From a virus (lineage: Duplodnaviria; Heunggongvirae; Uroviricota; Caudoviricetes; Thumleimavirales; Hafunaviridae): DNA of 64,000 bases. A program made the position numbers and the translations under genes. Each line of letters begins with the position of its first letter. Position 1 is the first letter of the stretch. Under the pieces are notes generated by a model. It saw nothing but the letters and a program-made list of their open reading frames with translations. It did not search any database and was not told the DNA's origin. Of this stretch, positions 5,335-61,112 are shown piece by piece. Location: positions 10,520 to 74,519 of the IMG/VR virus record IMGVR_UViG_2595698612_000001. One strand, given 5' to 3'.

Positions 5335-5388
5335 TCGCGCTTCTCGCTGAATCGCTTTTCGACTAAATTTCTTTACACTTAACCTATT

Positions 5389-5859
5389 ATGACTGACGAA
5401 ACCGACAACGACAGTAACGACGTTAACATCTCGAAGCTCCGCGAACTCGCCCTCCGGGGGAAGAACTACCGGGAGGAGTTCGAGACTACCTACCTCGGTG
5501 AGAGTCTGACTCTCTACCTCAAGCCGCTGACGGACATTGAGTTCCTGCCGATTGCGGCGTTCCTCGAAGACAAGCTCGACATGGACGCCGAGGAAGCGAA
5601 GGAACGCATCGAGGAGGAGCGCGAATCCGGTGAAGACGACTCGATTGATATGGCGAACTTCGACGCGGAGTTCGTCGGTATCATGCAGGAGGCCGCCGCG
5701 AAGGGCGTTGACACCACGCAGGGTGACGCCGAAGGTCTGGACGAGGACTTGGTTCTCGAAACCATCCGCGACCTGATTGGTGGGAAGTCCATCGAGATTG
5801 CGGAGCGCGTTCTGGACATTTCCAGCAACGCGGAGGACGCCAAGAAGTTTCGCAGATAG
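5389..5859 (+). CDS. tail assembly chaperone (gpG/E-like), upstream frame
   Basis: Acidic 156-aa protein directly 5' of the tape measure gene. It overlaps a second ORF in the +1 frame by about 80 nt. Confidence 0.5.
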   Translation: MTDETDNDSNDVNISKLRELALRGKNYREEFETTYLGESLTLYLKPLTDIEFLPIAAFLEDKLDMDAEEAKERIEEERESGEDDSIDMANFDAEFVGIMQEAAAKGVDTTQGDAEGLDEDLVLETIRDLIGGKSIEIAERVLDISSNAEDAKKFRR

Positions 5860-14496: not shown

Positions 14497-15702
14497 ATGG
14501 TCAATTACGGAAGTGGACACCTTGGCGACGAAACGATTAGCACGGACGCTACCAAGAATACCCCAATTCTTGAGTACGAAAATCTAACAGTAGAAGAAGG
14601 GGCAACTCTCAGTTTGCCCTCCAGAGTTCGTCTGATGGTTAATGATACTCTTACGGTAAATGGAACCATCAGCGTCTCTAATGATATTTCAGGTTCGGGT
14701 GGAAATGCAAGTGGTGGGGATTCTGGAGGCAACCTCGAACTAATTGCCCGAACCATCGCCGGTACTGGACTAATAGAAGCAGATGGTGATAATGGGGATA
14801 CTGCTAATAACAGGGGAAATCGAAATAACGGCGGAGCTGGTTCTGGATACAGTATCCCGACTACTGGAGCATCGGGTTCTGGAGGTAGCGGTGGTGGAGT
14901 TGGTGCTAATGCGGACTATGATAGTGCAAATGGATGGAATGGCCCAAGAAATGGAGGCGGGGCCGGAAGTCAGCACTCGTCCATCTATAATGATTCAACT
15001 CTGAAGCCGTACCTTGAGGATTACCTTCTCTCGGGAGCATATATTACTCAGAGTCCCATCGACACTATTCTTCCCGGTTCTGGAGGAGCTGGTGGAGGTG
15101 GTGGTGGTGAAGGTCTTGACGACCCCCACTCAAACAACAACTACGCAACTGAGCAAGTAGAAGTTGGTGGAGGTGGAGGTGGTGCTGGTGGCAGTTTCGT
15201 CTCTAAGGGTGGTTCTGGTGGAAATGGACACCACAGACGAGACTACGACCACAATATAATCTCCAACAACACCGACTCCAATAACAACAACACCGGAGGT
15301 AATGCCTACATAAAAGGCGGCGGTGCTGGTGGTGGAGGCGGTGCTGGTGGCTTTATCCTGCTCGTTTCAGAAGAAGTGGGTGAAGGAGTTACCTTCTCTG
15401 CCATTGGCGGTGACGGTGGAGATGGATTCTGGAGTCTTGTTGACGGTCGAAATGTCGAATCTGGTGGAAATTACAGCAACTTCCAGTACGAAGAATCCTC
15501 CCGTGATGGTGGAGGTGGAGGCGGTGGTGCTGGAGGCGTGATTATTGGGTTCGTTGACAAAACGCCTACTATTGAGCTTTCTGGAGGTTCTGCTGGTATT
15601 CCGGGTGGTCAGCGCAGAGATGGTTCCAACTTCAACTCCAATGCTGGTTCCCCCGGCCAAGATGGAATCACGTTCTTCTACGACATTAAGGAGCTAATCT
15701 AA
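14497..15702 (+). CDS. glycine-rich tail fiber / receptor-binding protein (401 aa)
   Basis: Long low-complexity GGAGGGGG tracts separated by short variable segments, typical of distal fibre/adhesin proteins. Confidence 0.5.
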   Translation: MVNYGSGHLGDETISTDATKNTPILEYENLTVEEGATLSLPSRVRLMVNDTLTVNGTISVSNDISGSGGNASGGDSGGNLELIARTIAGTGLIEADGDNGDTANNRGNRNNGGAGSGYSIPTTGASGSGGSGGGVGANADYDSANGWNGPRNGGGAGSQHSSIYNDSTLKPYLEDYLLSGAYITQSPIDTILPGSGGAGGGGGGEGLDDPHSNNNYATEQVEVGGGGGGAGGSFVSKGGSGGNGHHRRDYDHNIISNNTDSNNNNTGGNAYIKGGGAGGGGGAGGFILLVSEEVGEGVTFSAIGGDGGDGFWSLVDGRNVESGGNYSNFQYEESSRDGGGGGGGAGGVIIGFVDKTPTIELSGGSAGIPGGQRRDGSNFNSNAGSPGQDGITFFYDIKELI

Positions 15703-16615: not shown

Positions 16616-17452
16616 CTATTTGTCTCCCTCGTGAGGGAGCATCCGCGACCCCGGCTTCGGTTGCCAGCGACGGTCGCGGTACGTGGATACGTGTGAGCTA
16701 AGCTCTGTCTGAGTCCGTTGCTGTTCGAGGGCTTCTTCTTCCGTCATCAGGCGCGAAGTCGCGTCAGTAAGCATCGAATCGCGCTTGAAGGGAATCACCT
16801 GAACGATGGGCGTACCCGCGTCGAGGATTCCCTCGAAGTCACCACCCGTCCACATGAACGGCGCGTTCACGTAGTTGAAGTAATTATCGAGGTCTACGAC
16901 GCCCGAGAACGGAGTGAACTGCTGTCCCGGTCGGTTCATCGGATTAGTGATTAGGGCGGAGTATCCATCTGGAAGTTTCATACACCACCAGTTGTGGAAC
17001 TTGAGGACGGGCCACTCGTGGTTCGGGAACATCTCACCCCCGACTTGATTGAGACTGTGGGATGATACGAGAGTTCTATCAAACTCCCATTCGTACTCTA
17101 CGTACCCCTCATTCGCATTGAACATCACTTCTCCCGCAAGTGGAATAATCCATCCCATCGTCATTGCCTCCATGAATGGAGCGCACCGCTTGACTGTGGA
17201 ACTTGATAGTGCGGGTCGGGTGTTCGTTGAATCTTCGTCGGGTTCTCTGCTAACGTACTGACCAAGTTGCTTGTACCAATCCGGCATCACCTTGTTCGCC
17301 GGAATCGGCTCGGGAATCGCCCCGTACAATTCTTCCTCGGTCACGAACTCGATGAGCTGGTCTTCTTCCGGTTCTTCCTCTGCTGGCGTACCGTCAGGAC
17401 GAACTTTGGTAGAGAGGTCACTAACGGCGCTGGTTACACTCGAAAAATCCAT
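16616..17452 (-). CDS. hypothetical protein (about 279 aa; ATG at 17452, track uses GTG at 17458)
   Basis: Lone leftward gene between the structural block and nrdJ. Its start codon abuts copy i of the composite promoter element. Confidence 0.5.
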   Translation of the reverse strand: MDFSSVTSAVSDLSTKVRPDGTPAEEEPEEDQLIEFVTEEELYGAIPEPIPANKVMPDWYKQLGQYVSREPDEDSTNTRPALSSSTVKRCAPFMEAMTMGWIIPLAGEVMFNANEGYVEYEWEFDRTLVSSHSLNQVGGEMFPNHEWPVLKFHNWWCMKLPDGYSALITNPMNRPGQQFTPFSGVVDLDNYFNYVNAPFMWTGGDFEGILDAGTPIVQVIPFKRDSMLTDATSRLMTEEEALEQQRTQTELSSHVSTYRDRRWQPKPGSRMLPHEGDK

Positions 17453-17455
17453 CTT

Positions 17456-17506
17456 CACTCTAATAGACGTGAGACAAGGACTTAAAGATACCTCTTTGAG
17501 TCTTTA
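17456..17506 (-). promoter_or_regulatory. composite operator/promoter element, copy i (A: CACTCTAATAGACG; B: GACTTAAAGATACC; C: TCTTTGAGTCTTTA)
   Basis: One of six copies of a conserved ~50-bp element made of two palindromic modules. It sits directly upstream of gene 16616..17452. Confidence 0.55.
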
Positions 17507-17518
17507 ACACTCAACAAT

Positions 17519-17649: not shown

Positions 17650-17702
17650 TAAGAACAAAGTCGGCATCTTTAAGTCTTTAGTTGCCGTCTATTAGAGTGA
17701 GG
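17650..17702 (+). promoter_or_regulatory. composite operator/promoter element, copy ii (inverted relative to copy i; faces nrdJ)
   Basis: GGCATCTTTAAGTC ... CCGTCTATTAGAGTGAGG. Reverse-complement orientation of copies iii-v. Confidence 0.5.
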
Positions 17703-17744
17703 AGCTTACGACGAAGCGAACCTAACTGGTTCACCTCGAAATCC

Positions 17745-20585: not shown

Positions 20586-20810
20586 ATAAAGAACCACACA
20601 CCGTGGGTATATAAAACGGGGGGTGTCGGGTGGGACTTTATTTCCCATCATTCGGTTGTGGAAACGCGGTGATACACGCACGGCATACGGGGCTATACCC
20701 CCTATTTATTTATAAGCAGAGTTGGTAGTAGAGGGTACAGAGGCACGCAGAAGGGGTAGTTACCGGCAAAGGTAGCCCCTTTCAGGGCCGAAGGCCACCT
20801 CGGTAAAGCG

Positions 20811-20857
20811 CGTCCTTGGTAAGGACGAGAGCGGGGGTTCAAATCCCCCCTCAGGCT
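20811..20857 (+). other. tRNA-Thr(GGU)-like 3' half (anticodon arm to acceptor 3' strand); candidate attP core
   Basis: CGTCC-TTGGTAA-GGACG anticodon arm and GGGGG-TTCAAAT-CCCCC T-arm are present. The 5' half does not fold as a tRNA. Lies immediately upstream of the integrase. Confidence 0.4.
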
Positions 20858-20893: not shown

Positions 20894-21073
20894 GCTTCTT
20901 GGGAGCGAAAAAATGCACACCAAGAAAGCACTCTACCCACAAACGTACACCCCCGCGCCGTCTTGCGATTCCGTGAACTGTCAGGACACTATAACTCTGA
21001 ACCCCGCGCGAGCGCGTATCCTCAACGGTGGTGTCCCGGCTTGAACCGGAACGACCCACTCGACAGCGTGGAA

Positions 21074-22234
21074 ATGAGCGCGGCATCCGAGGATATACCA
21101 CCCGCGCCCGAACCCATCGAGTTCGGCTTCCCACTCGTGAGCCAACGCTCGCGCGAAGACCTCGAACAGTTCGGCCTCAACATGGTACAAGACTACCACG
21201 ACTTCAAAGAGGAAGTCCTGACGTGGCTCGGCAACTACGGGAAGAACCCCGACAAGTACGAAGGACTCGCCCGCACCACGCTTGAGTCCACGCACTACAA
21301 GCTCGAAACCGTCTTCCGCTGGTTATGGAAATACGAGGGCCAATACACAACCACCTTCACGCCCGAACACGCGGATAAATTCATCTCGCTGTTGAATCAA
21401 GCCGACTCGATGATTGACAGCACCGTGCTTCACCACGCCAAGGACATACGCCGGTACTTCCGCTACTGTAACCACGCGCAGGGCAAAGACTACGATTGGG
21501 AACCCGACCTCGAACTCAGTCAGTCCAACGGCGACGAGCGAGACTACCTCCGACGCGCCGCGTTCGAGCCGCTGTACCAATCCGCGCTCAGTCACTCATC
21601 GGTCAAGTCCTACTACTCGTGTACGCCGGAGGAACGCGCCGAGTTGAAAACCTACGTCTCTCAGCGCCTCCAAGTCCCGAAGGAAAAAGTCGGGGCCGAC
21701 GAGTTCAAGCAAGCAAACTCGTGGAAGTACCCATCTATGATTGCGACGACTCTCGATACCGGGCTTCGACCCATCGAGGTCGGACGAGCGAAGGTGTCGT
21801 GGGTGAACCTCCAAGATAACGAGCTGAACATCCCGAAGGACGAATCCACGAAGAACGAGGGCCATTGGAACTGCGCGATTCAGAAGCGCACGGCGAAGGC
21901 GCTCGAACGCTGGATAGACGAGCGAGACGCTATCGAGAAGTACGACAGTCGGGACGAACTATGGCTCACGCAGAAAGCCCGCCCCTACAACTCCGACTCG
22001 TGTAACGGCCTGCTTGACCGAATCATCGAGTCGGGGAACGTCCCGATACCCGACCACCGGAAAGACGACCTCTCGTGGTACAGCATCCGCCACGGAGTCG
22101 CTACGTACTGGGCGAACCACGTCGGCCCCCACCACGCGAAAGAACAACTCCGGCACAAGAGCGTCACGACGACGATGAAGTACCTCCACTCGGACTCAGA
22201 CACCCGAGGGAGCGCGGTCGAACAAATCTGGTAG
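21074..22234 (+). CDS. int: tyrosine recombinase / integrase (start trimmed to ATG 21074)
   Basis: C-terminal catalytic region contains HxxR and the KYLH tyrosine (WYSIRHGVATYW...LRHKSVTTTMKYLH). The track's longer N-terminal extension overlaps the tRNA-like element and is rejected. Confidence 0.8.
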   Translation: MSAASEDIPPAPEPIEFGFPLVSQRSREDLEQFGLNMVQDYHDFKEEVLTWLGNYGKNPDKYEGLARTTLESTHYKLETVFRWLWKYEGQYTTTFTPEHADKFISLLNQADSMIDSTVLHHAKDIRRYFRYCNHAQGKDYDWEPDLELSQSNGDERDYLRRAAFEPLYQSALSHSSVKSYYSCTPEERAELKTYVSQRLQVPKEKVGADEFKQANSWKYPSMIATTLDTGLRPIEVGRAKVSWVNLQDNELNIPKDESTKNEGHWNCAIQKRTAKALERWIDERDAIEKYDSRDELWLTQKARPYNSDSCNGLLDRIIESGNVPIPDHRKDDLSWYSIRHGVATYWANHVGPHHAKEQLRHKSVTTTMKYLHSDSDTRGSAVEQIW

Positions 22235-22721: not shown

Positions 22722-22851
22722 AATTAAACGGTTCAGTACCCCGCCTGATAAAATCCGTGGCCCTCAGATGTTCCGCACTCGTACTAAAAACAAAAAAGCC
22801 CCCGACCACGGGGGGTCGGGGGTGGCAAACACTACTGCATCTTTAGAACCG

Positions 22852-23142
22852 CTACGCCGTCGCTGGTTTGTTCTGCTCGCTATACTTCCAGAACTCAGTT
22901 TCCTCAGAGTGTAACCGAGCGTGGTCAGACGCCGACATGAGACTCAGATTAGACGGTCTGTTGTCCCACCGAACGCCGTTGAGGTGGTGGACTTGATTCT
23001 GACAGACAGCCTCGAAGCCGTACTCCGCGAGCATAATTAACCGATGAATCGCAACCTCCCGCTGGACGCCCTCGTACTCATTCGTCGCTATCTCGTAGCC
23101 GTGATGCCAGCAATGACCGGCTGGACTTGTATCAGACGACAC
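22852..23142 (-). CDS. HNH endonuclease (96 aa)
   Basis: HHLNGVRWDNRPSNLSLMSASDHARLH matches the HNH His-Asn-His motif; Cys/His-rich N-terminus. Confidence 0.65.
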   Translation of the reverse strand: MSSDTSPAGHCWHHGYEIATNEYEGVQREVAIHRLIMLAEYGFEAVCQNQVHHLNGVRWDNRPSNLSLMSASDHARLHSEETEFWKYSEQNKPATA

Positions 23143-23143
23143 G

Positions 23144-24508
23144 TTACTTCTTGAAGTTCATCACGGGCCGGAGACGGTCAACGACCTCTGCGGTCGGCTT
23201 GATGTGTTCCTCGATGAGTTCCGGCGGCTTGTAGGCTTCCGGCACTTCGTCACCCGGCACACGGGCCGAGTACGTTCCGTTCTCGTACATCCGCTTGCGG
23301 GCTTCGTCGGCGTCGAACTGCTCGTGTGCCCATCCACGGCTACCAAGTCGGCCCGCTCCGTGGGGAGCCGAGTAGTTGTAGTCCGGGTTCCCGTTCCCGA
23401 TACACAGAAGCGTTCCGTCCTCCATGTTCATCGGGATAGCGAACAGATTACCGGCAGAGGCTCGCGTGGAACCCTTCCGAATCATCATATCCTCGAAGTC
23501 CACGTAGTTGTGCGGGGAGTCGAGGAACTTGGTAATCGACGCATCGAGGGTTTGAGCCACTTCCTGAACCATCAGGAGGCGATTGAAGCTCGCGTAAGTC
23601 TGAGCGAGCATCATATCGTAGTAGTACCCGTAGGCTTCGCGGCCTTCGAGGTAGTCGAGGTCTTTGTTCCGGTTCGCGTCCGGGGAGTACGACTTGATTT
23701 CCTCCCCGATACGCCCGATTTCCTCGCCGTCGTTGTAGAGCTTGATTTTCTCCCAATCCGGGGAGCCGTCCGGGTTCGCGTAGTGCTTCAACCGCTCGCC
23801 CATCTCGCCCCACTTCACGTCGGCGTCACGGTGTTCGGTCGCCTTCTCCTGCCAGTACGCCGCGACCTTCTGACCGAGGTTGCGGGAACCGGAGTGAACG
23901 ACGACCCACAGCTCGTCGGACTGCTCGGACTCGGCAATCTCGATGAAGTGATTACCGGAGCCGAGCGTTCCGAGGGAACGGAGCGCGTATCTCTTTCTGA
24001 TTCCGACGCGCTTGCACATCTTCTCGAAGTAGTCCGGGCGGAACATCCCCTCGTCCCGGCTCTCGTAGTCGAAGTCCATCGCGTCGTAGAAGTGGAGTAG
24101 CTTCTCGTTGGCCTTCCACCACGGGAACGACCACTCAAGGTCAACCTCCGGCTCTTTGTGAACGCGACCAGTCCCCATCGGAATCCGGTCGCGCACCTCT
24201 TTGTTCACCTCGCGGAAGTCGTCTATGTCGGAGGGCTTGTCGGCTTCCGACACATCGAGGCGGGCCGCTGTCATTCCACAACCAATATCCCCGCCTACCG
24301 TTTTCGGAATCACGCGGTCTGTCAGAGGCATCGAGAACCCGACGATACAGGCAGGCCCGAGGCCTCCGTGACAGTCCGGCATGAACTTCACCGGGTTCTG
24401 GAACGCCTCGTGGTTAACCATCTCCTTTATCTCCTCTTGGAGTCCGTCTTCCACTTCTTCTTCTGGTAGGTGTACCTCTGCTGTCGTACTGCTTCCTTCT
24501 ACAATCAT
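23144..24508 (-). CDS. rtcB: RtcB-family RNA 3'-phosphate ligase (454 aa, no intein)
   Basis: Hallmark motifs DIGCGM, GSGNHFIEI and the HGAGR nucleophile-His motif. Full-length RtcB architecture. Confidence 0.85.
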   Translation of the reverse strand: MIVEGSSTTAEVHLPEEEVEDGLQEEIKEMVNHEAFQNPVKFMPDCHGGLGPACIVGFSMPLTDRVIPKTVGGDIGCGMTAARLDVSEADKPSDIDDFREVNKEVRDRIPMGTGRVHKEPEVDLEWSFPWWKANEKLLHFYDAMDFDYESRDEGMFRPDYFEKMCKRVGIRKRYALRSLGTLGSGNHFIEIAESEQSDELWVVVHSGSRNLGQKVAAYWQEKATEHRDADVKWGEMGERLKHYANPDGSPDWEKIKLYNDGEEIGRIGEEIKSYSPDANRNKDLDYLEGREAYGYYYDMMLAQTYASFNRLLMVQEVAQTLDASITKFLDSPHNYVDFEDMMIRKGSTRASAGNLFAIPMNMEDGTLLCIGNGNPDYNYSAPHGAGRLGSRGWAHEQFDADEARKRMYENGTYSARVPGDEVPEAYKPPELIEEHIKPTAEVVDRLRPVMNFKK

Positions 24509-24723
24509 TAGTTCTGTTTAGATAGAGTGTATAACTCTGAGTGTTCTACTACGGTACTGTCTTAGTTGAGTGAACAACCCTCGATGTGGTAAAACTCAAA
24601 GTAGGTAACTATCAGTAGGTAACTACTAAGAGTATATATCTAAGATAGATATTTCGCCCGCGTTATGCGCTCGCGCGAGCTTATTCGGATGTTTCGTCGT
24701 ATAGTACCGATACGGTACTATAT

Positions 24724-24753
24724 GACTTAAAGATGCCGATTTAAGTCTTGAGG
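24724..24753. promoter_or_regulatory. palindromic B-module GACTTAAAGATGCCGATTTAAGTC in RtcB upstream region
   Basis: Inverted halves GACTTAAA / TTTAAGTC. Preceded by a perfect inverted repeat ATAGTACCG-ata-CGGTACTAT at 24696-24718. Confidence 0.4.
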
Positions 24754-27380: not shown

Positions 27381-27426
27381 CATAGATATGTCTCTCTGGT
27401 TCAGATTAGCGTACAGAACAGTCGCT

Positions 27427-27482
27427 CCTCACTCTATTAGACGGTGCGTAAAGACTTAAAAATTCCTCTTTTCGTCTTATCC
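27427..27482 (+). promoter_or_regulatory. composite operator/promoter element, copy iii (C module degenerate); heads the thyX-dcd leftward operon
   Basis: CCTCACTCTATTAGACGG ... AAGACTTAAAAATTCC ... Confidence 0.5.
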
Positions 27483-41752: not shown

Positions 41753-41823
41753 GTCTGGACGGACGGAATCGAACCGCCCTTGGGAGGGTTACAGCCTCCG
41801 CGTTCGCCTTGAACACTTCCAGA
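41753..41823 (-). tRNA. tRNA-like gene, possible tRNA-Tyr(GUA) with non-canonical acceptor/D-arm
   Basis: Perfect anticodon arm GGAGG-CTGTAAC-CCTCC and T-arm GGCGG-TTCGATT-CCGTC. Acceptor 6/7 bp and D-arm short (GTTC-AAGGC-GAAC). Boundaries approximate. Confidence 0.35.
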
Positions 41824-41903: not shown

Positions 41904-41976
41904 CGCCGAGGACGGGACTCGAACCTGTGGCTACCTGATTAACAGTCAGGCGCTCTACCAACTGAGCTACCTCGGC
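41904..41976 (-). tRNA. tRNA-Asn(GUU)
   Basis: GCCGAGG acceptor, D-arm GCTC-AGTTGGTAG-AGCG, anticodon arm CCTGA-CTGTTAA-TCAGG, T-loop TTCGAGT; acceptor ends complementary. Confidence 0.85.
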
Positions 41977-42003
41977 AAGAGAAGGGGAGGATTGGGTGCT
42001 TGT

Positions 42004-42058
42004 CCTCACTCTATTAGATGTGGGACTAAGACTTAAAGATACCTATTTGAGTCTTAAG
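42004..42058 (+). promoter_or_regulatory. composite operator/promoter element, copy iv; heads tRNA-Asn and downstream leftward genes
   Basis: CCTCACTCTATTAGATG ... GACTTAAAGATACC ... TATTTGAGTCTTAAG. Confidence 0.55.
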
Positions 42059-42139
42059 AGTCGTCGGGAGGGATACCCCGCTCGATGAAGTGAATTGGAA
42101 GTGGAGAACCGAAGCCGGGGAGAGAAATGATAGAAGACA

Positions 42140-42967: not shown

Positions 42968-43039
42968 GAGCAACCGGCGGGAATCGAACCCGCAGAGCGT
43001 GGCTTTCGCTTCGCCCCCATTGCCAGTAGGTGTCGGTTG
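42968..43039 (-). tRNA. tRNA-like element: perfect 7-bp acceptor stem and T-arm, non-canonical D/anticodon region (anticodon undetermined; possible pseudo-tRNA)
   Basis: GCAACCG...GCGGG-TTCGATT-CCCGC-CGGTTGC-T. The internal 40 nt do not give a standard cloverleaf. Confidence 0.4.
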
Positions 43040-43115
43040 CGAGTCGCGGATTGCCGCGCCCACGCCCATCAAGGGGCATGGTCACGCGGCCTCCACCGGG
43101 GCGACTACCCGGCTC

Positions 43116-43186
43116 ATGCGACCGGAGGGAATCGAACCCTCGTTGGCGGCTTGGAAGGCCGCCGTGATACCACTACACTACGGTCG
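43116..43186 (-). tRNA. tRNA-Gly(UCC)
   Basis: GCGACCG acceptor, D-arm TAGTGTAGTGGTATCAC, anticodon arm GCGGC-CTTCCAA-GCCGC, T-arm GAGGG-TTCGATT-CCCTC, 3' CGGTCGC-A. Confidence 0.85.
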
Positions 43187-43196
43187 CAAAACGGAG

Positions 43197-44290: not shown

Positions 44291-44404
44291 TCTAAGCGTA
44301 CCAGCAACCCGGAAAAGCCACCGCAGGGCGGTAGCTGGACACCAACGAGTTAAACCATGACAGGACTCAGCCAAGCAAACGAGTCGAGGGGGCCACCGCG
44401 ACCT

Positions 44405-44458
44405 CCTCACTCTATTAGACGTGGTACTATGACTTAAAGATACCGCTTTGAGTCTTTG
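44405..44458 (+). promoter_or_regulatory. composite operator/promoter element, copy v; heads the SPFH leftward operon
   Basis: CCTCACTCTATTAGACG ... GACTTAAAGATACC ... GCTTTGAGTCTTTG. Confidence 0.55.
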
Positions 44459-44514
44459 ACCCCGTGCTAAACAGATAGCAAAGACTTAAGCGAGCTAACT
44501 CCGTCTTTGTACGC

Positions 44515-45598: not shown

Positions 45599-45653
45599 CC
45601 AAAGACTTAGAATCGGTATCTTTAAGTCCTTAGTTACCGTCTATTAGAGTGAG
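45599..45653 (-). promoter_or_regulatory. composite operator/promoter element, copy vi (inverted); faces the AT-rich leader of gene 45838
   Basis: AAAGACTTAGAATC GGTATCTTTAAGTC ... CCGTCTATTAGAGTGAGG. Confidence 0.5.
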
Positions 45654-45837
45654 GAGTTCTTCCGAACGGATTACTACACAGTATAGTACCTACTCTACTC
45701 TAACTACTCTGATAACACTCAGTTAGCTAAAGAGACTCGATGTAGTAAACTACTATTAGTAATACACTTAGTAGTTATACTCTTAGTTATACTGTTAGGT
45801 CAGTTATCGGGGAACTCTACCTCTGAGATGATTCTAA

Positions 45838-52876: not shown

Positions 52877-52955
52877 TTCTTAGAAGGTTCTGGTCAGCTC
52901 GTCACAGCCGGGGCGACCAACTCCCGACGACGCCCCAAAGTGGGGCGTTTCGCCG

Positions 52956-53165
52956 TTACCGCGTCGTGTAGATTTCCTCTCCGCGTTCCATGTCGTAGAG
53001 GGAAACAATCCCTCGATGTAGGTGAACACCGAGTTCGTAAGCGTCTCCGTCAGCCTCGAACTCCATCTGGAACCAATCGCCCTCGGTCTTAACGTAGACC
53101 TCAGGCCGATTCGGGAGAGCGTTCAGAATGTCCAGTACGTCCTCGCTCCGCATTTCGTTGCTCAT
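52956..53165 (-). CDS. hypothetical protein (69 aa)
   Basis: Coding-like ORF. Confidence 0.4.
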   Translation of the reverse strand: MSNEMRSEDVLDILNALPNRPEVYVKTEGDWFQMEFEADGDAYELGVHLHRGIVSLYDMERGEEIYTTR

Positions 53166-53507
53166 TTTGTGGATTCTGCCATTCTCGGCGCTCTATGTTG
53201 ATTATCTCCGATACATCCCGTCGCGGAGCGGATTTTCCACGACGCCGCCAGCAAGCCTTTCGACGGAGGGAGTAAAAATACTCGTAGTCGGCTTGCTCTA
53301 TCTTCTCAATGTCTTCTCCTTCCATACTACCGTAAGTGACACCGCAGGTTGTTCGTCAGTAGTTACTACGTGGCGACAGCTCGCCGCCGAGTCCCGCTGG
53401 CTCCGCCCTCGGAACCGGGCACTTCGTCGGTTCGAGCGTCATTTGGTCAACCCCGTGCTTCGAGAGGGGTTCACCACACCGACCACACCGCTCGTCGTCT
53501 CGGGGCA

Positions 53508-53837
53508 TTACGATTCTGCCTCGAACCAGAACTTCACCCCGACGCCCTTCCCGGTGAGGGTTGCGAACTTGAACTCGAACCCGAAGTCCGAGAGCGTGTT
53601 TCGCTCCGTGTTCATCAGGATGTGGGAGGACAGTTCGCCTTCCCCATCCCGCCACGGTTGGTGAGGAATCAGAATCATCTGAACGTCCCCCATCCGGCCT
53701 CGGCGGAGGTGACTCAGTTCACCGAACCGCTCAGGAAGCTCGTCGAGGATTTGTTCTTCGAGGGCGTCGTAGTCCACGTCCTCGGTCGTCGTCTCGTCGG
53801 TGCTGGTGCTGTCGGTCGTGCTGGTGGTCGTACTCAT
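53508..53837 (-). CDS. hypothetical protein (~109 aa, start trimmed to MSTTTSTTD)
   Basis: Thr/Ser-rich N-terminus then acidic domain. Confidence 0.35.
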   Translation of the reverse strand: MSTTTSTTDSTSTDETTTEDVDYDALEEQILDELPERFGELSHLRRGRMGDVQMILIPHQPWRDGEGELSSHILMNTERNTLSDFGFEFKFATLTGKGVGVKFWFEAES

Positions 53838-53844
53838 TGTAGGA

Positions 53845-54498
53845 TTACTCGCTGGTTTCTCGCTCTCGTTCCCTCCGGGCGCAGATGTTATCGAGGAACA
53901 GCTTGAGCGAATACTCGGGAATCGGTCGGTCGGCGTTCTCCACGGCAACCCGTGGGCTGATTACCTCGAACGGCTCGCCGTCCGGGTCGTACATCCGCCA
54001 CTCTCCTTGACCGAGAGCTTCGAGAGTGTACGTCACCGGGTCTTTCGAGGACAGCCGGATGTAGTAGTCGTACTCGTACCGGACTCCCTTCGAGTGAAGC
54101 GGCCCTTCGAGCAGTTGTATCGCTTCACCCAAATCCTCACGGGTTTCCTCGATGAAGCGGAGCTTCGTGATGATGTCGTTGTAGAACCCGGCGAGGGCGA
54201 GTTGCTGAACGGACTCCTGTTGGTCTTCCGGGTCGTTGTAGAACCGCTCACCACCCTCGTTGTAGAACCCCTCCTCGGCGTGATAGATTACACACCGCTG
54301 GTAATACTGAATCAGCTCGTGGTTCTCCACGGCGGCTTCAGCGATAGCCCACAGAGGGACTTCCTCGGGTAACTCCTCCGGGTCGTAGCCCGTGGTGCGT
54401 ATCTCCTCCCCACCTTCCATCGCGTAGTCGTAGTATCGCTTTGCCGTTGCCTGTACCTCTCGGATGTAACTCTCGAATGAATCGTACTTGTTAGTCAT
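53845..54498 (-). CDS. hypothetical protein (217 aa)
   Basis: Coding-like ORF. Confidence 0.45.
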   Translation of the reverse strand: MTNKYDSFESYIREVQATAKRYYDYAMEGGEEIRTTGYDPEELPEEVPLWAIAEAAVENHELIQYYQRCVIYHAEEGFYNEGGERFYNDPEDQQESVQQLALAGFYNDIITKLRFIEETREDLGEAIQLLEGPLHSKGVRYEYDYYIRLSSKDPVTYTLEALGQGEWRMYDPDGEPFEVISPRVAVENADRPIPEYSLKLFLDNICARRERERETSE

Positions 54499-54505
54499 AG
54501 TCTGA

Positions 54506-54955
54506 TTACCGCCGGAGTCCCTTCATCGACGGGCAACCCGCCTCGATGTAGCTGAACAGAGCGCAGGTGTAGAAGTCCTGCTTGAACCGCCACGGAGTGT
54601 GGGGGTGGTTCACCATCGCTTCCATCTCGTAGAACAGCGTCGGGGTGACGCTGGCCGTGAGCTGGTTCTCGCTCGTTCTGTTAGCGACTTCCAGAATCTC
54701 CTCAACGTCACGAGTCTCCCCGGTCGCATCGAGGTAGAACAGAAGCGCGTCGTTCACGAACTGACTGACGCTCCGCCACTTCGCGCTCCGAATCGCCGTC
54801 TCGGTCACGTAGTTCTTGACCTTATCGTTGACCGTGACGGGAACCGACGCCGTTCGGTTCTCATCGGTCGTCTTGAACTTGTAGGTGACTGCTTCGCTCG
54901 GGGTGTGGTCGTCGTACAGTTCAGCGTCGGCTTCCGTTGCGGTGTTTGCGGCCAT
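54506..54955 (-). CDS. ribbon-helix-helix (CopG-like) DNA-binding protein (149 aa)
   Basis: ASVPVTVNDKVKNYVTETAIRSAKWRSVSQFVNDALLFYLDA fits strand-helix-helix. Confidence 0.4.
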   Translation of the reverse strand: MAANTATEADAELYDDHTPSEAVTYKFKTTDENRTASVPVTVNDKVKNYVTETAIRSAKWRSVSQFVNDALLFYLDATGETRDVEEILEVANRTSENQLTASVTPTLFYEMEAMVNHPHTPWRFKQDFYTCALFSYIEAGCPSMKGLRR

Positions 54956-55195
54956 AGTAGACTCGTTGTTTGCTCCTCCGCCTTTCCGTGGCTGGCATCA
55001 TCAGACTACCCGAACCACCGGGTAGTGACACCCCTCGATGGGGTGTTTCGCCATTAGAATATCTCAGGTCGAACTACCTCGAACACGATTATCGCAATCC
55101 AGAGAACGAAGGACGCAAGAAGAACCTCAGCAGGAATCATACCGGGACAGCGGCCCCGCCGCCACCCCGTCGCTTGAAGAACTCTCGTAGGAGGT

Positions 55196-61022: not shown

Positions 61023-61083
61023 CGGTAGCCGTTGCTACCGAAGGCCCTTCCGGGGAGTCGAACCCCGGTGTCGCCACTAAGGG
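61023..61083 (-). ncRNA. tRNA top-half-like structured leader element, copy B (CGGTAG/CTACCG hairpin + outer stem CCCTT/AAGGG enclosing CCGGGG-TTCGACT-CCCCGG)
   Basis: Same architecture and conserved loop/linker (AGTGGCG) as copy A, with covarying stems. Confidence 0.5.
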
Positions 61084-61112
61084 TTAATGAAGCGTCTTTG
61101 AGTCTTTGCGCC

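Follow-up and report, generated by a model that had tools for sequence, protein, structure and literature searches.

Genes and features at the rtcB locus

The window, that is, the whole stretch of 64,000 nucleotides analysed, matches Halorubrum tailed virus 8 (HRTV-8, Halorubrum tailed phage 8; KC292020) with 100% identity, a record in which gene 44 has been annotated as RtcB and gene 43 as HNH since 2013. The coordinates of these two genes and of the other features considered in this work are presented in Table 1. The original prediction had placed RtcB immediately after the HNH gene. The two genes are indeed contiguous, with the GTG start codon of the HNH gene located 1 nt past the rtcB stop codon, but both are encoded on the minus strand and rtcB therefore precedes HNH in the direction of transcription.

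Table 1. Coordinates of the genes and RNA features of the HRTV-8 window related to rtcB.
Feature	Position	Strand	Description
rtcB (HRTV-8 gene 44)	23144..24508	-	454-aa RtcB-family protein, putative 3'-phosphate/2',3'-cyclic-phosphate to 5'-OH RNA ligase
Free-standing HNH_3 endonuclease gene (HRTV-8 gene 43)	22852..23142	-	96 aa; PF13392, phrog_7545
Terminator-like GC hairpin and T-run closing the rtcB(-HNH) unit	22789..22822	-	9-bp stem with 8 G-C, then CTTTTTTGTT
Partial class I intergenic repeat, possible promoter	24719..24751	.	Repeat family D3, 79% identity to reference copy
tRNA-Asn(GUU)	41904..41976	-	Rfam tRNA 73 bits; ARAGORN; no intron; candidate substrate or replacement tRNA
tRNA-Gly(UCC)	43117..43187	-	Rfam tRNA 72.6 bits; ARAGORN; no intron; candidate substrate or replacement tRNA
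'Tyr-like' tRNA	41753-41822	-	ARAGORN only
tRNA-Thr-like element	20787-20857	+	33 bits
Hammerhead_II (RF02276), upstream copy	54986-55053	- (rtcB strand)	51.2 bits; canonical core CUGAUGA...GAAA...GUC
Hammerhead_II (RF02276), helicase copy	52889-52955	- (rtcB strand)	45.4 bits; variant core

The terminator sequence is kept in 7/7 aligned congeners, and it lies directly 3' of rtcB where the HNH gene is absent. Upstream of rtcB there is a 247-nt gap that contains the partial class I intergenic repeat. Repeats of this class bear promoters in HF2 (PMC8707807), and the HRTV-8 copy is a possible promoter for rtcB. A sigma-70 promoter scan found nothing, this model not being relevant to an archaeal virus. 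RtcB and PolB are carried on one 18-kb transcript in HF2 (PMC8707807), and the HRTV-8 gene would be expressed from a leftward early-to-middle replication operon.

Identity, active site and predicted fold of HRTV-8 RtcB

The 454-aa protein was predicted to be a full-length RtcB with the motifs DIGCGM, GNHFIEI and HGAGR, and this description proved accurate. The three motifs were found at residues 74-79, 185-191 and 383-387, respectively, and the match to PF01139 (RtcB, Pfam) covers model positions 4-425 of 426, that is, the full length, with 189 bits (E 1.9e-55), above the curated cut-off of 27 bits. The protein also matches phrog_1075, 'tRNA splicing ligase', with 412 bits (E 7e-123). Residues D74, C77, N186, H187, H205, H333, N334, H383 and R387 are invariant in the 121 clade members. 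Six of them (D74, C77, N186, H187, H205 and H383) correspond by alignment to D95, C98, N202, H203, H234 and H404 of the Pyrococcus horikoshii enzyme (PH1602), while the pair H333-N334 was matched to H329 by motif position only. Apart from the nucleophile H404, these P. horikoshii positions make up the set of metal-binding Asp, Cys and His residues plus Asn. The nucleophilic histidine would be H383, located in the sequence PHGAGR, which aligns with H404 in the sequence CHGAGR of P. horikoshii.

The AF2 model of the protein (pLDDT 89.9, pTM 0.87) was compared with the PDB by Foldseek, and the best 16 matches were all RtcB/RTCB structures (E 1e-22 to 3e-14), the next match having an E value of 0.02. 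HRTV-8 RtcB thus shares with the family (PF01139, arCOG04246/COG1690; PH1602, human RTCB, E. coli RtcB) the full-length domain, every catalytic residue tested, the guanylyl-histidine and the predicted fold. It differs from the solved RtcB structures, to which it is about 20% identical and against which it scores 42 bits in pairwise comparison and 0.55-0.67 in TM-score, with a mostly helical stretch between His205 and His333 that is unaligned to them in sequence searches. Bacterial RtcB subfamilies appeared in the NCBIfam search only as partial, sub-threshold matches, so a finer subfamily name is not assignable. There is no archease among the annotated genes of the HRTV-8 genome.

The dN/dS values of rtcB against six congeners (0.15-0.22) indicate purifying selection. 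It had been considered that homologues in related viruses might be intein-bearing fragments devoid of function, a possibility that fails because the copies of the relatives are full-length and intein-free. At the level of sequence and predicted fold, HRTV-8 RtcB looks like a genuine, intact, conserved and functional protein, and it is predicted to seal RNA ends.

Distribution and relatives of the viral RtcB

All 31 Haloferacalesvirus isolates carry RtcB (Liu 2021 supplement). The two described HF1-group proviruses are both devoid of it (PMC7230728), and RtcB is thus dispensable for the virus as such. The closest cellular relatives of the HRTV-8 protein are chromosomal haloarchaeal RtcBs (43-52% identity), and in sequence comparisons the viral protein falls within the haloarchaeal RtcB radiation, so that the label of 'archaeal-type' ligase given in the original prediction holds in this sense. 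Since haloarchaeal chromosomes encode an RtcB of the same clade, a virus would have no obvious reason to bring its own.

Homologues are also present in 593 phage records (phrog_1075). The proteins of mycobacteriophages, Listeria A511-like, Bacillus SPO1-like and jumbo phages belong to the same family as HRTV-8 RtcB, which scores 412 bits, they share with it a tendency to neighbour tRNA genes, and the repair hypothesis has been proposed for them too (PMC7824862). HRTV-8 RtcB differs from them as an archaeal-virus copy that groups with the haloarchaeal cellular proteins (43-52%) and not with the bacterial phage copies (26-37%).

The HNH gene as a mobile insertion

The HNH protein matches HNH_3 (PF13392) with 43 bits (E 2.7e-11, cut-off 24.8) and phrog_7545 with an E value of 1.9e-25, and the catalytic residues H52-H53, N61/N65 and H74/H78 were assigned by eye from the sequence. 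Alignment of the congeners revealed that the gene is a clean indel of about 310 bp, located between the rtcB stop codon and the terminator and absent from HF2 and three other congeners. At this site it is found in 4/31 congeners (HRTV-8, HRTV-14, HRTV-17 and Serpecor1), with orthologues at least 93% identical, and in the remaining congeners rtcB is followed either at once by the terminator or by another insert. HNH paralogues are found at a distance of 4-5 kb or belong to other virus families, and closer homologues (54-56% identity) lie at sites unrelated to this one, as in HVTV-1, a virus that is not one of those bearing RtcB. The rtcB regions of HRTV-14 and HRTV-17 are 99.9% and 99.3% identical to that of HRTV-8, respectively, and both viruses, unlike HRTV-8, contain a second copy of the HNH gene, located after PolB in HRTV-14.

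On these comparisons the HNH gene is a selfish mobile insertion of the homing-endonuclease type, unrelated to RtcB function, which would be passively co-transcribed on the rtcB transcription unit. The adjacency had been taken as a functional hint, a suggestion that loses its basis because the gene is a sporadic mobile insertion. As in the free-standing HNH homing endonuclease genes of phages (I-HmuI-like, HNH_3), the HRTV-8 gene encodes an HNH_3 domain, is intergenic beside a conserved gene and shows a patchy distribution among near-identical genomes. HHpred ties the protein to I-HmuI, 1U3E (Liu 2021 supplement), and a sequence search against PDB chains gave no match. It differs from those endonucleases in its 96 aa and in having no recognisable DNA-binding extension, and it is a putative homing endonuclease.

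A functional module of two genes in which the HNH nuclease is paired with the RtcB ligase, like the Rnl2-HNH fusions of some phages, would agree with the spacing of 1 nt, with the common terminator and with the existence of such fusions in phages (PMC7824862) and in HGTV-1 gene 233. This module is extremely improbable in view of the presence of the HNH gene at the rtcB site in only 4 of the 31 congeners, the homologues found elsewhere and the absence from HRTV-8 of the second copy of HRTV-14 and HRTV-17 despite the near-identical rtcB regions. In addition, the 3'-OH/5'-P ends produced by HNH nucleases do not serve RtcB as substrates. The functional pairing was ruled out by the indel alignment and the phyletic pattern. 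HCTV-1, considered as a second case of RtcB next to HNH, was also rejected, the nuclease annotated there as HNH being really an ERCC4/Hef-type nuclease.

tRNA genes of the window and association of viral RtcB with tRNA genes

The virus had been credited with its own Asn, Gly and Tyr-like tRNA genes and several tRNA-like elements. The Asn and Gly genes are solid, whereas the other two elements are degenerate or correspond to attP: the 'Tyr-like' tRNA has no Rfam listing even at E<=1, and the integrase-adjacent counterpart of the tRNA-Thr-like element in HF1/HF2 and in two proviruses is attP (PMC7230728, PMC8707807). The two good tRNA genes are about 17-19 kb from rtcB. The codons GGA and GGG account for 44% of the Gly codons in viral ORFs, and codon-usage compensation may explain the presence of the HRTV-8 tRNA genes without any nuclease.

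A comparison of viral loci from IMG/VR has revealed tRNA genes within 10 kb of RtcB in 20/60 loci and in 1/60 control viral loci (Fisher p = 4e-6; 1e-3 with one clonal group collapsed). This significant association of viral RtcB with tRNA genes speaks for the original prediction. In one 59-kb contig RtcB is placed within a 28-tRNA array. The halovirus HGTV-1 has two intron-containing tRNAs (Ala and Asp), the tRNA-Asp gene being located 1.1 kb from RtcB, and a TROVE/Ro60 protein is encoded 4 kb from RtcB. HGTV-1 further encodes a CCA-adding enzyme together with two proteins annotated as RNA ligases (Rnl2 family per Liu 2021).

The tRNA association fits equally well a role in RNA maturation, in which the viral RtcB would boost the joining of pre-tRNA exons and the processing of BHB-cleaved rRNA at host shut-down or under high translation demand, with no defence nuclease involved. 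Such a supplement to splicing would be in line with the two intron-containing tRNAs of HGTV-1, one of them so close to RtcB, and with a viral enzyme of the same clade as the chromosomal haloarchaeal RtcBs. Nevertheless, no intron-containing tRNA was found in the HRTV-8 window by ARAGORN with introns allowed at default stringency (relaxed settings yielded noise), and a viral tRNA of this kind was consequently discarded as the reason for HRTV-8 RtcB. The host RtcB is presumably adequate already and, to our knowledge, most bacteriophage RtcBs are found in viruses whose hosts have no protein-spliced tRNA introns. We consider this maturation role rather unlikely.

A role on DNA has also been considered, in which RtcB would act not on RNA but on DNA 3'-phosphate ends, guanylylating or sealing them in the course of replication. 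E. coli RtcB is able to cap DNA 3'-phosphate ends, the neighbours of HRTV-8 rtcB are nucleotide-metabolism and replication genes (dCTP deaminase, ThyX and PolB), and HCTV-1 RtcB is flanked by a Hef-type nuclease and a MazG-like pyrophosphatase. However, gene order in compact operons is weak functional evidence, it is with tRNA genes that viral RtcB is significantly associated, and activity on DNA ends appears highly improbable.

Hammerhead ribozymes in the rtcB operon

Both Hammerhead_II matches of the window are above the Rfam gathering threshold of RF02276 (37). They are located in the same leftward operon as rtcB, and their cleavage products are exact RtcB substrates. For the 'tRNA-like leader elements' of the virus mentioned in the original prediction no confirmation was obtained, and the structured RNAs conserved here are these two hammerheads. 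In the covariation analysis, which supported stems I-III, 98.1% of cells were paired and 10/18 pairs had changed on both sides, a result reached by 0/500 shuffles, with at most 54% paired in slid controls, although fitting the alignment to the model gives structure an advantage.

The helicase copy is a homologue of the type II hammerhead of HF1/HF2 ('HHphage', Perreault 2011), which precedes the helicase start codon by 13 nt and shares the variant core with an insertion near C3. Unlike HF1/HF2, both HRTV-8 and HRTV-14 have, 2.1 kb further upstream, an additional hammerhead whose core is canonical, and three are present in HRTV-10. The publications consulted mention one copy only. A mapped transcript 5' end in HF2 lies no more than 3 nt from the cleavage site of the helicase hammerhead (PMC3088659), and this ribozyme is thus probably active in vivo in HF2.

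The end chemistry of hammerhead products (5'-OH and 2',3'-cyclic phosphate) fits RtcB exactly, and the viral enzyme could re-join hammerhead-cut viral transcripts or circularise the RNA of about 2.1 kb between 55026 and 52930 (55026..52930), whose predicted circle junction would rebuild a hammerhead fold. The two covariation-supported matches on the rtcB strand and the probable activity of the helicase copy in HF2 are consistent with this proposal, but the comparative data argue against it. The congeners differ in how many hammerheads they have (1 to 3) but not in the presence of RtcB, and the Rfam ribozyme scan found none in the other two RtcB-bearing halovirus lineages examined, HGTV-1 (whole genome) and HCTV-1 (first 100 kb, all but the last 3.3 kb). 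A custom hammerhead model gave no match within 10 kb of RtcB in 80 IMG/VR viral loci (1.43 Mb), and a general co-occurrence of hammerheads and RtcB was rejected on these grounds. Hammerheads of this type are common in IMG/VR (at least 119 stretches), and 3 are on contigs also among the RtcB matches listed. Cleaved 5' ends accumulate in vivo, and Perreault et al. examined clustered phage hammerheads for spliced or circularised products without finding any. A helicase-bearing relative, on a contig not among the RtcB matches listed, showed no hammerhead in the 4 kb upstream, which counts for little because only 6.3 kb were examined. A dedicated link between RtcB and the hammerheads is therefore not supported by the comparative evidence, and we regard the rejoining of ribozyme products as very unlikely. 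If true, an RtcB-closed circular RNA would be a natural counterpart, in an archaeal virus, of the engineered 'Tornado' system.

Proposed role of RtcB in tRNA repair

The best explanation of these data is that HRTV-8 has a working RtcB that reseals nicked host and viral tRNAs during lytic growth, with an unrelated, selfish HNH gene downstream, a proposal to which we give about an even chance. The tRNA-repair role is plausible. By the mechanism of the family, the enzyme would depend on GTP and Mn2+, His383 would be guanylylated and the GMP passed to the RNA 3'-phosphate, and the 5'-OH end would then attack the activated 3' end to form the new bond, so that RNA ends with a 2',3'-cyclic phosphate or a 3'-phosphate would be joined to 5'-OH ends. 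The breaks would be made by metal-independent host ribonucleases, stress- or defence-induced, and the most likely job of RtcB would be to keep the host and viral tRNA pool intact in lytic growth by resealing the cut tRNAs. PIN-type VapC toxins are metal-dependent, and their expected ends (3'-OH/5'-P) are not sealable by RtcB.

This one-step RNA repair would be analogous in its outcome to that of T4 Pnkp and Rnl1 acting on tRNA-Lys cleaved by PrrC, in which the viral enzymes restore tRNAs cut to 2',3'-cyclic phosphate and 5'-OH ends. In T4 the ends are healed and then sealed by two enzymes, with an ATP-dependent ligase, whereas RtcB would seal directly with GTP. For T4 both the nuclease of the host and the phenotype of mutants have been established, whereas HRTV-8 RtcB is known here from its sequence and predicted fold. 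The original prediction proposed a repair-or-replace strategy against host tRNA-targeting defences. Its RtcB and tRNA part agrees with our results, but no host anticodon nuclease is known for these hosts: no tRNA-cutting nuclease system of Halorubrum turned up in the literature searches, and none linked to these viruses or hosts.

The tRNA-repair idea was already proposed for viral RtcB by Liu 2021, and according to Iyer et al. 2021 (PMC7824862) phage RtcB adds to the effect of phage-encoded tRNAs in that it rejoins tRNAs cleaved by RNase effectors. GenBank and the literature already contain the gene, the family to which it is assigned and the repair hypothesis. The present work adds the identification of the HNH neighbour as an unrelated mobile element, the placement of the viral RtcB within the haloarchaeal radiation, its purifying selection, the statistical link of viral RtcB with tRNA genes, and two hammerheads whose products would be chemically ideal for RtcB, with comparative data against a dedicated link. 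Proof of the tRNA-repair role would provide the first case of an archaeal virus countering its host by RNA repair, and would imply that haloarchaea deploy tRNA-cutting defences that are so far undescribed.

Identification of the rtcB and HNH genes

Comparison with public records has revealed that a 3.5-kb segment around rtcB and the HNH gene was 100% identical to Halorubrum tailed virus 8 (HRTV-8, KC292020/NC_021321, 74,519 bp), which belongs to the genus Haloferacalesvirus of the Hafunaviridae; window positions are record positions minus 10,519. The original prediction of a full-length RtcB was borne out by the near-complete coverage of the Pfam model and by all three quoted motifs, and the product also matched the phage family phrog_1075 'tRNA splicing ligase' (412 bits). 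The HNH gene starts with GTG 1 nt past the rtcB stop codon, so the two genes adjoin as described, but both are on the minus strand and therefore rtcB comes first in transcription and the HNH gene second. Both were already annotated in KC292020 (gene 44 'RtcB', gene 43 'HNH protein') and, as 'RNA-splicing ligase RtcB' and 'HNH endonuclease', in HRTV-14, in which the rtcB region is 99.9% identical. Overall, the original observation was confirmed, and its interpretation is partly supported.

Features of the window and of comparison loci (positions are those of the window unless another locus is named)
Feature	Position	Strand	Description
GGT/GGA-rich imperfect repeat run	14871-15537	+	would encode a glycine-rich stretch
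Class I intergenic repeat, ~57 nt	17452-17508, 24719-24751, 27426-27482, 42003-42059, 44404-44460, 61076-61108
Class I repeat, inverted copies	17661-17704, 45613-45656
Degenerate tRNA-Thr(GGT)-like element	20787-20857	+	Rfam 33 bits; no ARAGORN call at default settings
Integrase gene	~21041-22234	+
Conserved GC hairpin with T-run	22822-22789		downstream of rtcB unit
HNH gene	22852..23142	-	96 aa; HNH_3 PF13392, E 2.7e-11; phrog_7545
rtcB	23144..24508	-	454 aa; Pfam RtcB, model positions 4-425 of 426, 189 bits
Aberrant 'tRNA-Tyr(GTA)'	41753-41822	-	ARAGORN only; without D-arm
Aberrant tRNA-like element	42968-43040	-	76 nt downstream of tRNA-Gly
Hammerhead, helicase-proximal	52889-52955	-	45.4 bits; variant core; 13 nt upstream of Rad3-like helicase start codon
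Hammerhead, upstream copy	54986-55053	-	51.2 bits; canonical core; 30 nt upstream of another ORF
HSTV-4 insert	L015 ~5363-5560
RtcB of a 59-kb contig	L023 10001-11482		IMGVR_UViG_3300028340_000001
HGTV-1 RtcB/tRNA-Asp/TROVE cluster and second intron-containing tRNA	L105 20440-23179 and 16069-17598; L104 49226-49328
Hammerheads in tRNA array, 42.7-kb contig	L122 2721-4653		IMGVR_UViG_3300025138_000088
Chromosomal haloarchaeal rtcB locus 1			beside ribosomal protein S8e
Chromosomal haloarchaeal rtcB locus 2			beside thiolase
Chromosomal haloarchaeal rtcB locus 3			region of ArgRS, riboflavin-kinase, LigT

The 247-nt gap upstream of rtcB holds a partial class I intergenic repeat (24719-24751), a type of element that carries promoters in HF2 (PMC8707807). 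Further direct and inverted copies, and a run of repeats that would encode a glycine-rich stretch, are present elsewhere in the window.

Evidence for a functional ligase

On sequence and modelled fold, all criteria applied identify the HRTV-8 protein as an RtcB family member. Residues D74, C77, N186, H187, H205 and H383 align with D95, C98, N202, H203, H234 and H404 of the P. horikoshii RtcB (PH1602), in which H404 is the guanylylated histidine, and these six catalytic residues, H333-N334 and R387 were invariant in HRTV-8 RtcB and 120 homologues. The AlphaFold model (pLDDT 89.9, pTM 0.87) retrieved RtcB/RTCB structures as its best 16 of 16 PDB matches (E 1e-22 to 3e-14, TM-scores 0.55-0.67), with every further match at E >= 0.02. 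When compared to six congeners (88-91% amino-acid identity), dN/dS was 0.15-0.22, and none of these copies or that of HRTV-8 was interrupted (453-454 aa). The gene has been recorded in 31 of 31 Haloferacalesvirus isolates (Liu et al. 2021 supplement, PMC8651126); the two known HF1-group proviruses are devoid of it (Dyall-Smith et al. 2020, PMC7230728). In HF2, rtcB and PolB share one 18-kb transcript (PMC8707807). Residues, fold, selection, distribution and expression taken together, the enzyme is probably functional.

Origin and distribution of RtcB

The viral protein is distant from solved RtcBs (~20% identity; 42 bits against PH1602), and among named cellular proteins its nearest relatives are haloarchaeal members of the RtcB family, which are equally distant from PH1602. 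The three cellular relatives examined were located in ordinary chromosomal settings, not in proviruses, and a SBP_bac_5-PAP2 gene pair near rtcB was common to the thiolase and the ArgRS/riboflavin-kinase/LigT loci. Viral-cellular identity was 43-52%, a range also seen among cellular copies of different haloarchaeal orders; the ligase described as 'archaeal-type' is thus rightly so in the sense of 'haloarchaeal-type', and its acquisition is old.

The haloarchaeal chromosomal proteins (L019, L100 and L101; ~42 bits against P. horikoshii RtcB, 43-52% between orders) are more divergent than is usual for a tRNA ligase presumed to have a housekeeping role. About 1.3 kb upstream of the Halalkaliarchaeum rtcB is a gene for a 2H phosphoesterase of the LigT type.

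Virus-encoded RtcB is common. Homologues were detected by tblastn in 593 of 50,697 phage records, including phages of Mycobacterium (215), Bacillus (59) and Listeria (58), with 48 from haloarchaeal viruses. The HRTV-8 copy belongs to a well-populated class of phage-encoded RtcBs.

The HNH gene as a mobile insertion

Seven congeners were aligned over the segment that runs from the rtcB 3' end up to where the following gene, coding for a winged-helix protein, begins. The HNH gene is a clean insertion of about 310 bp, extending from directly after the rtcB stop codon to just before the conserved terminator hairpin, that is present in HRTV-8 and Serpecor1 and absent from HF2 and three others. This interval appears to be an insertion hot spot. 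HSTV-4 carries a different insert of about 180 bp at the same site.

In the phage collection, orthologues with at least 93% identity at the rtcB site were restricted to HRTV-8, HRTV-14, HRTV-17 and Serpecor1. In other congeners, paralogues with ~42% identity are found at a distance of 4-5 kb, and nearer homologues (54-56%) occupy unrelated sites in Druskaviridae, including HVTV-1, a virus absent from the RtcB-bearing set. A second copy was found in HRTV-14, where it follows PolB, and in HRTV-17, with none in HRTV-8. Since many HNH and LAGLIDADG genes are scattered through these genomes, the neighbour of rtcB is best described as a mobile selfish gene in an intergenic landing site. A functional RtcB-HNH pairing was rejected on the clean indel, the patchy presence and the homologues at unrelated sites, and the HNH gene named in the heading of the original prediction was a red herring. 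A candidate second pairing, the 'HNH' beside RtcB in HCTV-1, was really an ERCC4/Hef-type nuclease.

Hammerhead ribozymes on the rtcB strand

Scanning the window with Rfam models has revealed two hammerhead ribozymes of type II, encoded on the same strand as rtcB and within the leftward early operon. The copy nearer the helicase gene is a homologue of the salt-adapted 'HHphage' of HF1/HF2 (Perreault et al. 2011, PMC3088659), and no mention of the upstream copy was found in the literature on HF1/HF2-group viruses. With a model built from eight copies, the helicase hammerhead was detected in 7 of 7 distinct congeners examined. The fold is supported by covariation: 98% of cells were paired, with compensatory changes in 10 of 18 pairs, a level equalled by 0 of 500 shuffles. 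Most congeners have one hammerhead, HRTV-8 and HRTV-14 two, and HRTV-10 three, two of them flanking the helicase gene.

The RNA ends produced by hammerhead cleavage, a 2',3'-cyclic phosphate and a 5'-OH, are exactly those that RtcB joins. This match in chemistry would allow RtcB to be tied to the hammerhead products, the 2.1-kb RNA between the two ribozymes being circularisable in principle, and its end-to-end junction is predicted to refold as a hammerhead. Such a tie is nevertheless very improbable, and the comparisons speak against a dedicated link: no Rfam ribozyme was found in the RtcB-encoding viruses HGTV-1 (whole genome) and HCTV-1 (first 100 kb), none of 80 viral loci had a hammerhead within 10 kb of RtcB, and hammerheads of this type occur widely in IMG/VR (at least 119 stretches), with only three stretches on RtcB-positive contigs among the RtcB matches listed. 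Moreover, the cleaved ends accumulate in vivo (PMC3088659). No connection of these ribozymes to RtcB was found in the literature on haloviruses and phage hammerheads.

Two matches to the type II hammerhead lie among the 10 genes of a tRNA array in another viral contig (L122), a layout that suggests ribozyme processing of the tRNA cluster.

tRNA genes and the substrate of RtcB

Among the tRNA genes originally assigned to the virus (Asn, Gly and Tyr-like), only tRNA-Asn(GUU) and tRNA-Gly(UCC) were convincing, about 17-19 kb from rtcB and neither with an intron, whereas the Tyr-like one proved aberrant. The element downstream of tRNA-Gly has a good acceptor stem and T-arm without a proper D-arm or anticodon arm. 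For HRTV-8, a remnant of tRNA-Arg(TCT) that has lost 28 nt has been described (Dyall-Smith 2020, PMC7230728). The tRNA-Thr-like element adjoins the integrase gene and is the counterpart of the attP published for the HF1 group (PMC7230728, PMC8707807). As 44% of the viral Gly codons are GGA or GGG, codon-usage compensation may explain tRNA-Gly(UCC). A tRNA-cleaving nuclease of the host is not known for these virus-host systems.

The strongest comparative signal on the RtcB substrate is its association with tRNA genes, which were present in 20 of 60 IMG/VR loci with relatives of HRTV-8 RtcB (flanks of up to 10 kb on either side, 1.04 Mb in total) versus 1 of 60 unrelated viral loci (0.54 Mb). 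The Fisher p value was 4e-6, or 1e-3 with one clonal group collapsed, against an imperfect control of shorter loci from other phage types. All 103 tRNAs in the RtcB loci were on the RtcB strand. In the 59-kb contig L023, RtcB (39% identical to the HRTV-8 protein) is embedded centrally in a tRNA array of 28 genes, all on the same strand. In HGTV-1, an intron-containing tRNA-Asp lies at a distance of 1.1 kb from RtcB, and a TROVE/Ro60 protein is encoded 4 kb from it; the second intron-containing tRNA (Ala) is within a tRNA array, and among the genes of this virus are those for 36 tRNAs, for a CCA-adding enzyme and for two annotated RNA ligases, assigned to the Rnl2 family (Liu et al. 2021, PMC8651126). 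These surroundings resemble a neighbourhood for the repair and quality control of RNA in an archaeal virus.

It has been hypothesized that RtcB-type ligases of phages complement the phage tRNAs by resealing tRNAs that RNase effectors have cleaved (Iyer et al. 2021, PMC7824862). 'Repair of viral tRNAs' was suggested for HGTV-1 RtcB, in a study reporting that Hafunaviridae also encode RtcB and tRNAs (Liu et al. 2021, PMC8651126), and 'tRNA repair' is listed among the functions of this genome region (Dyall-Smith et al. 2021, PMC8707807). Given these proposals and the GenBank annotation, the finding, although correct, is already known as to the gene, its family and the tRNA-repair idea, the repair function being putative. 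The association with tRNA genes and the HGTV-1 context point to a role of RtcB in tRNA repair or maturation, with which countering host defence and supporting splicing would fit alike.
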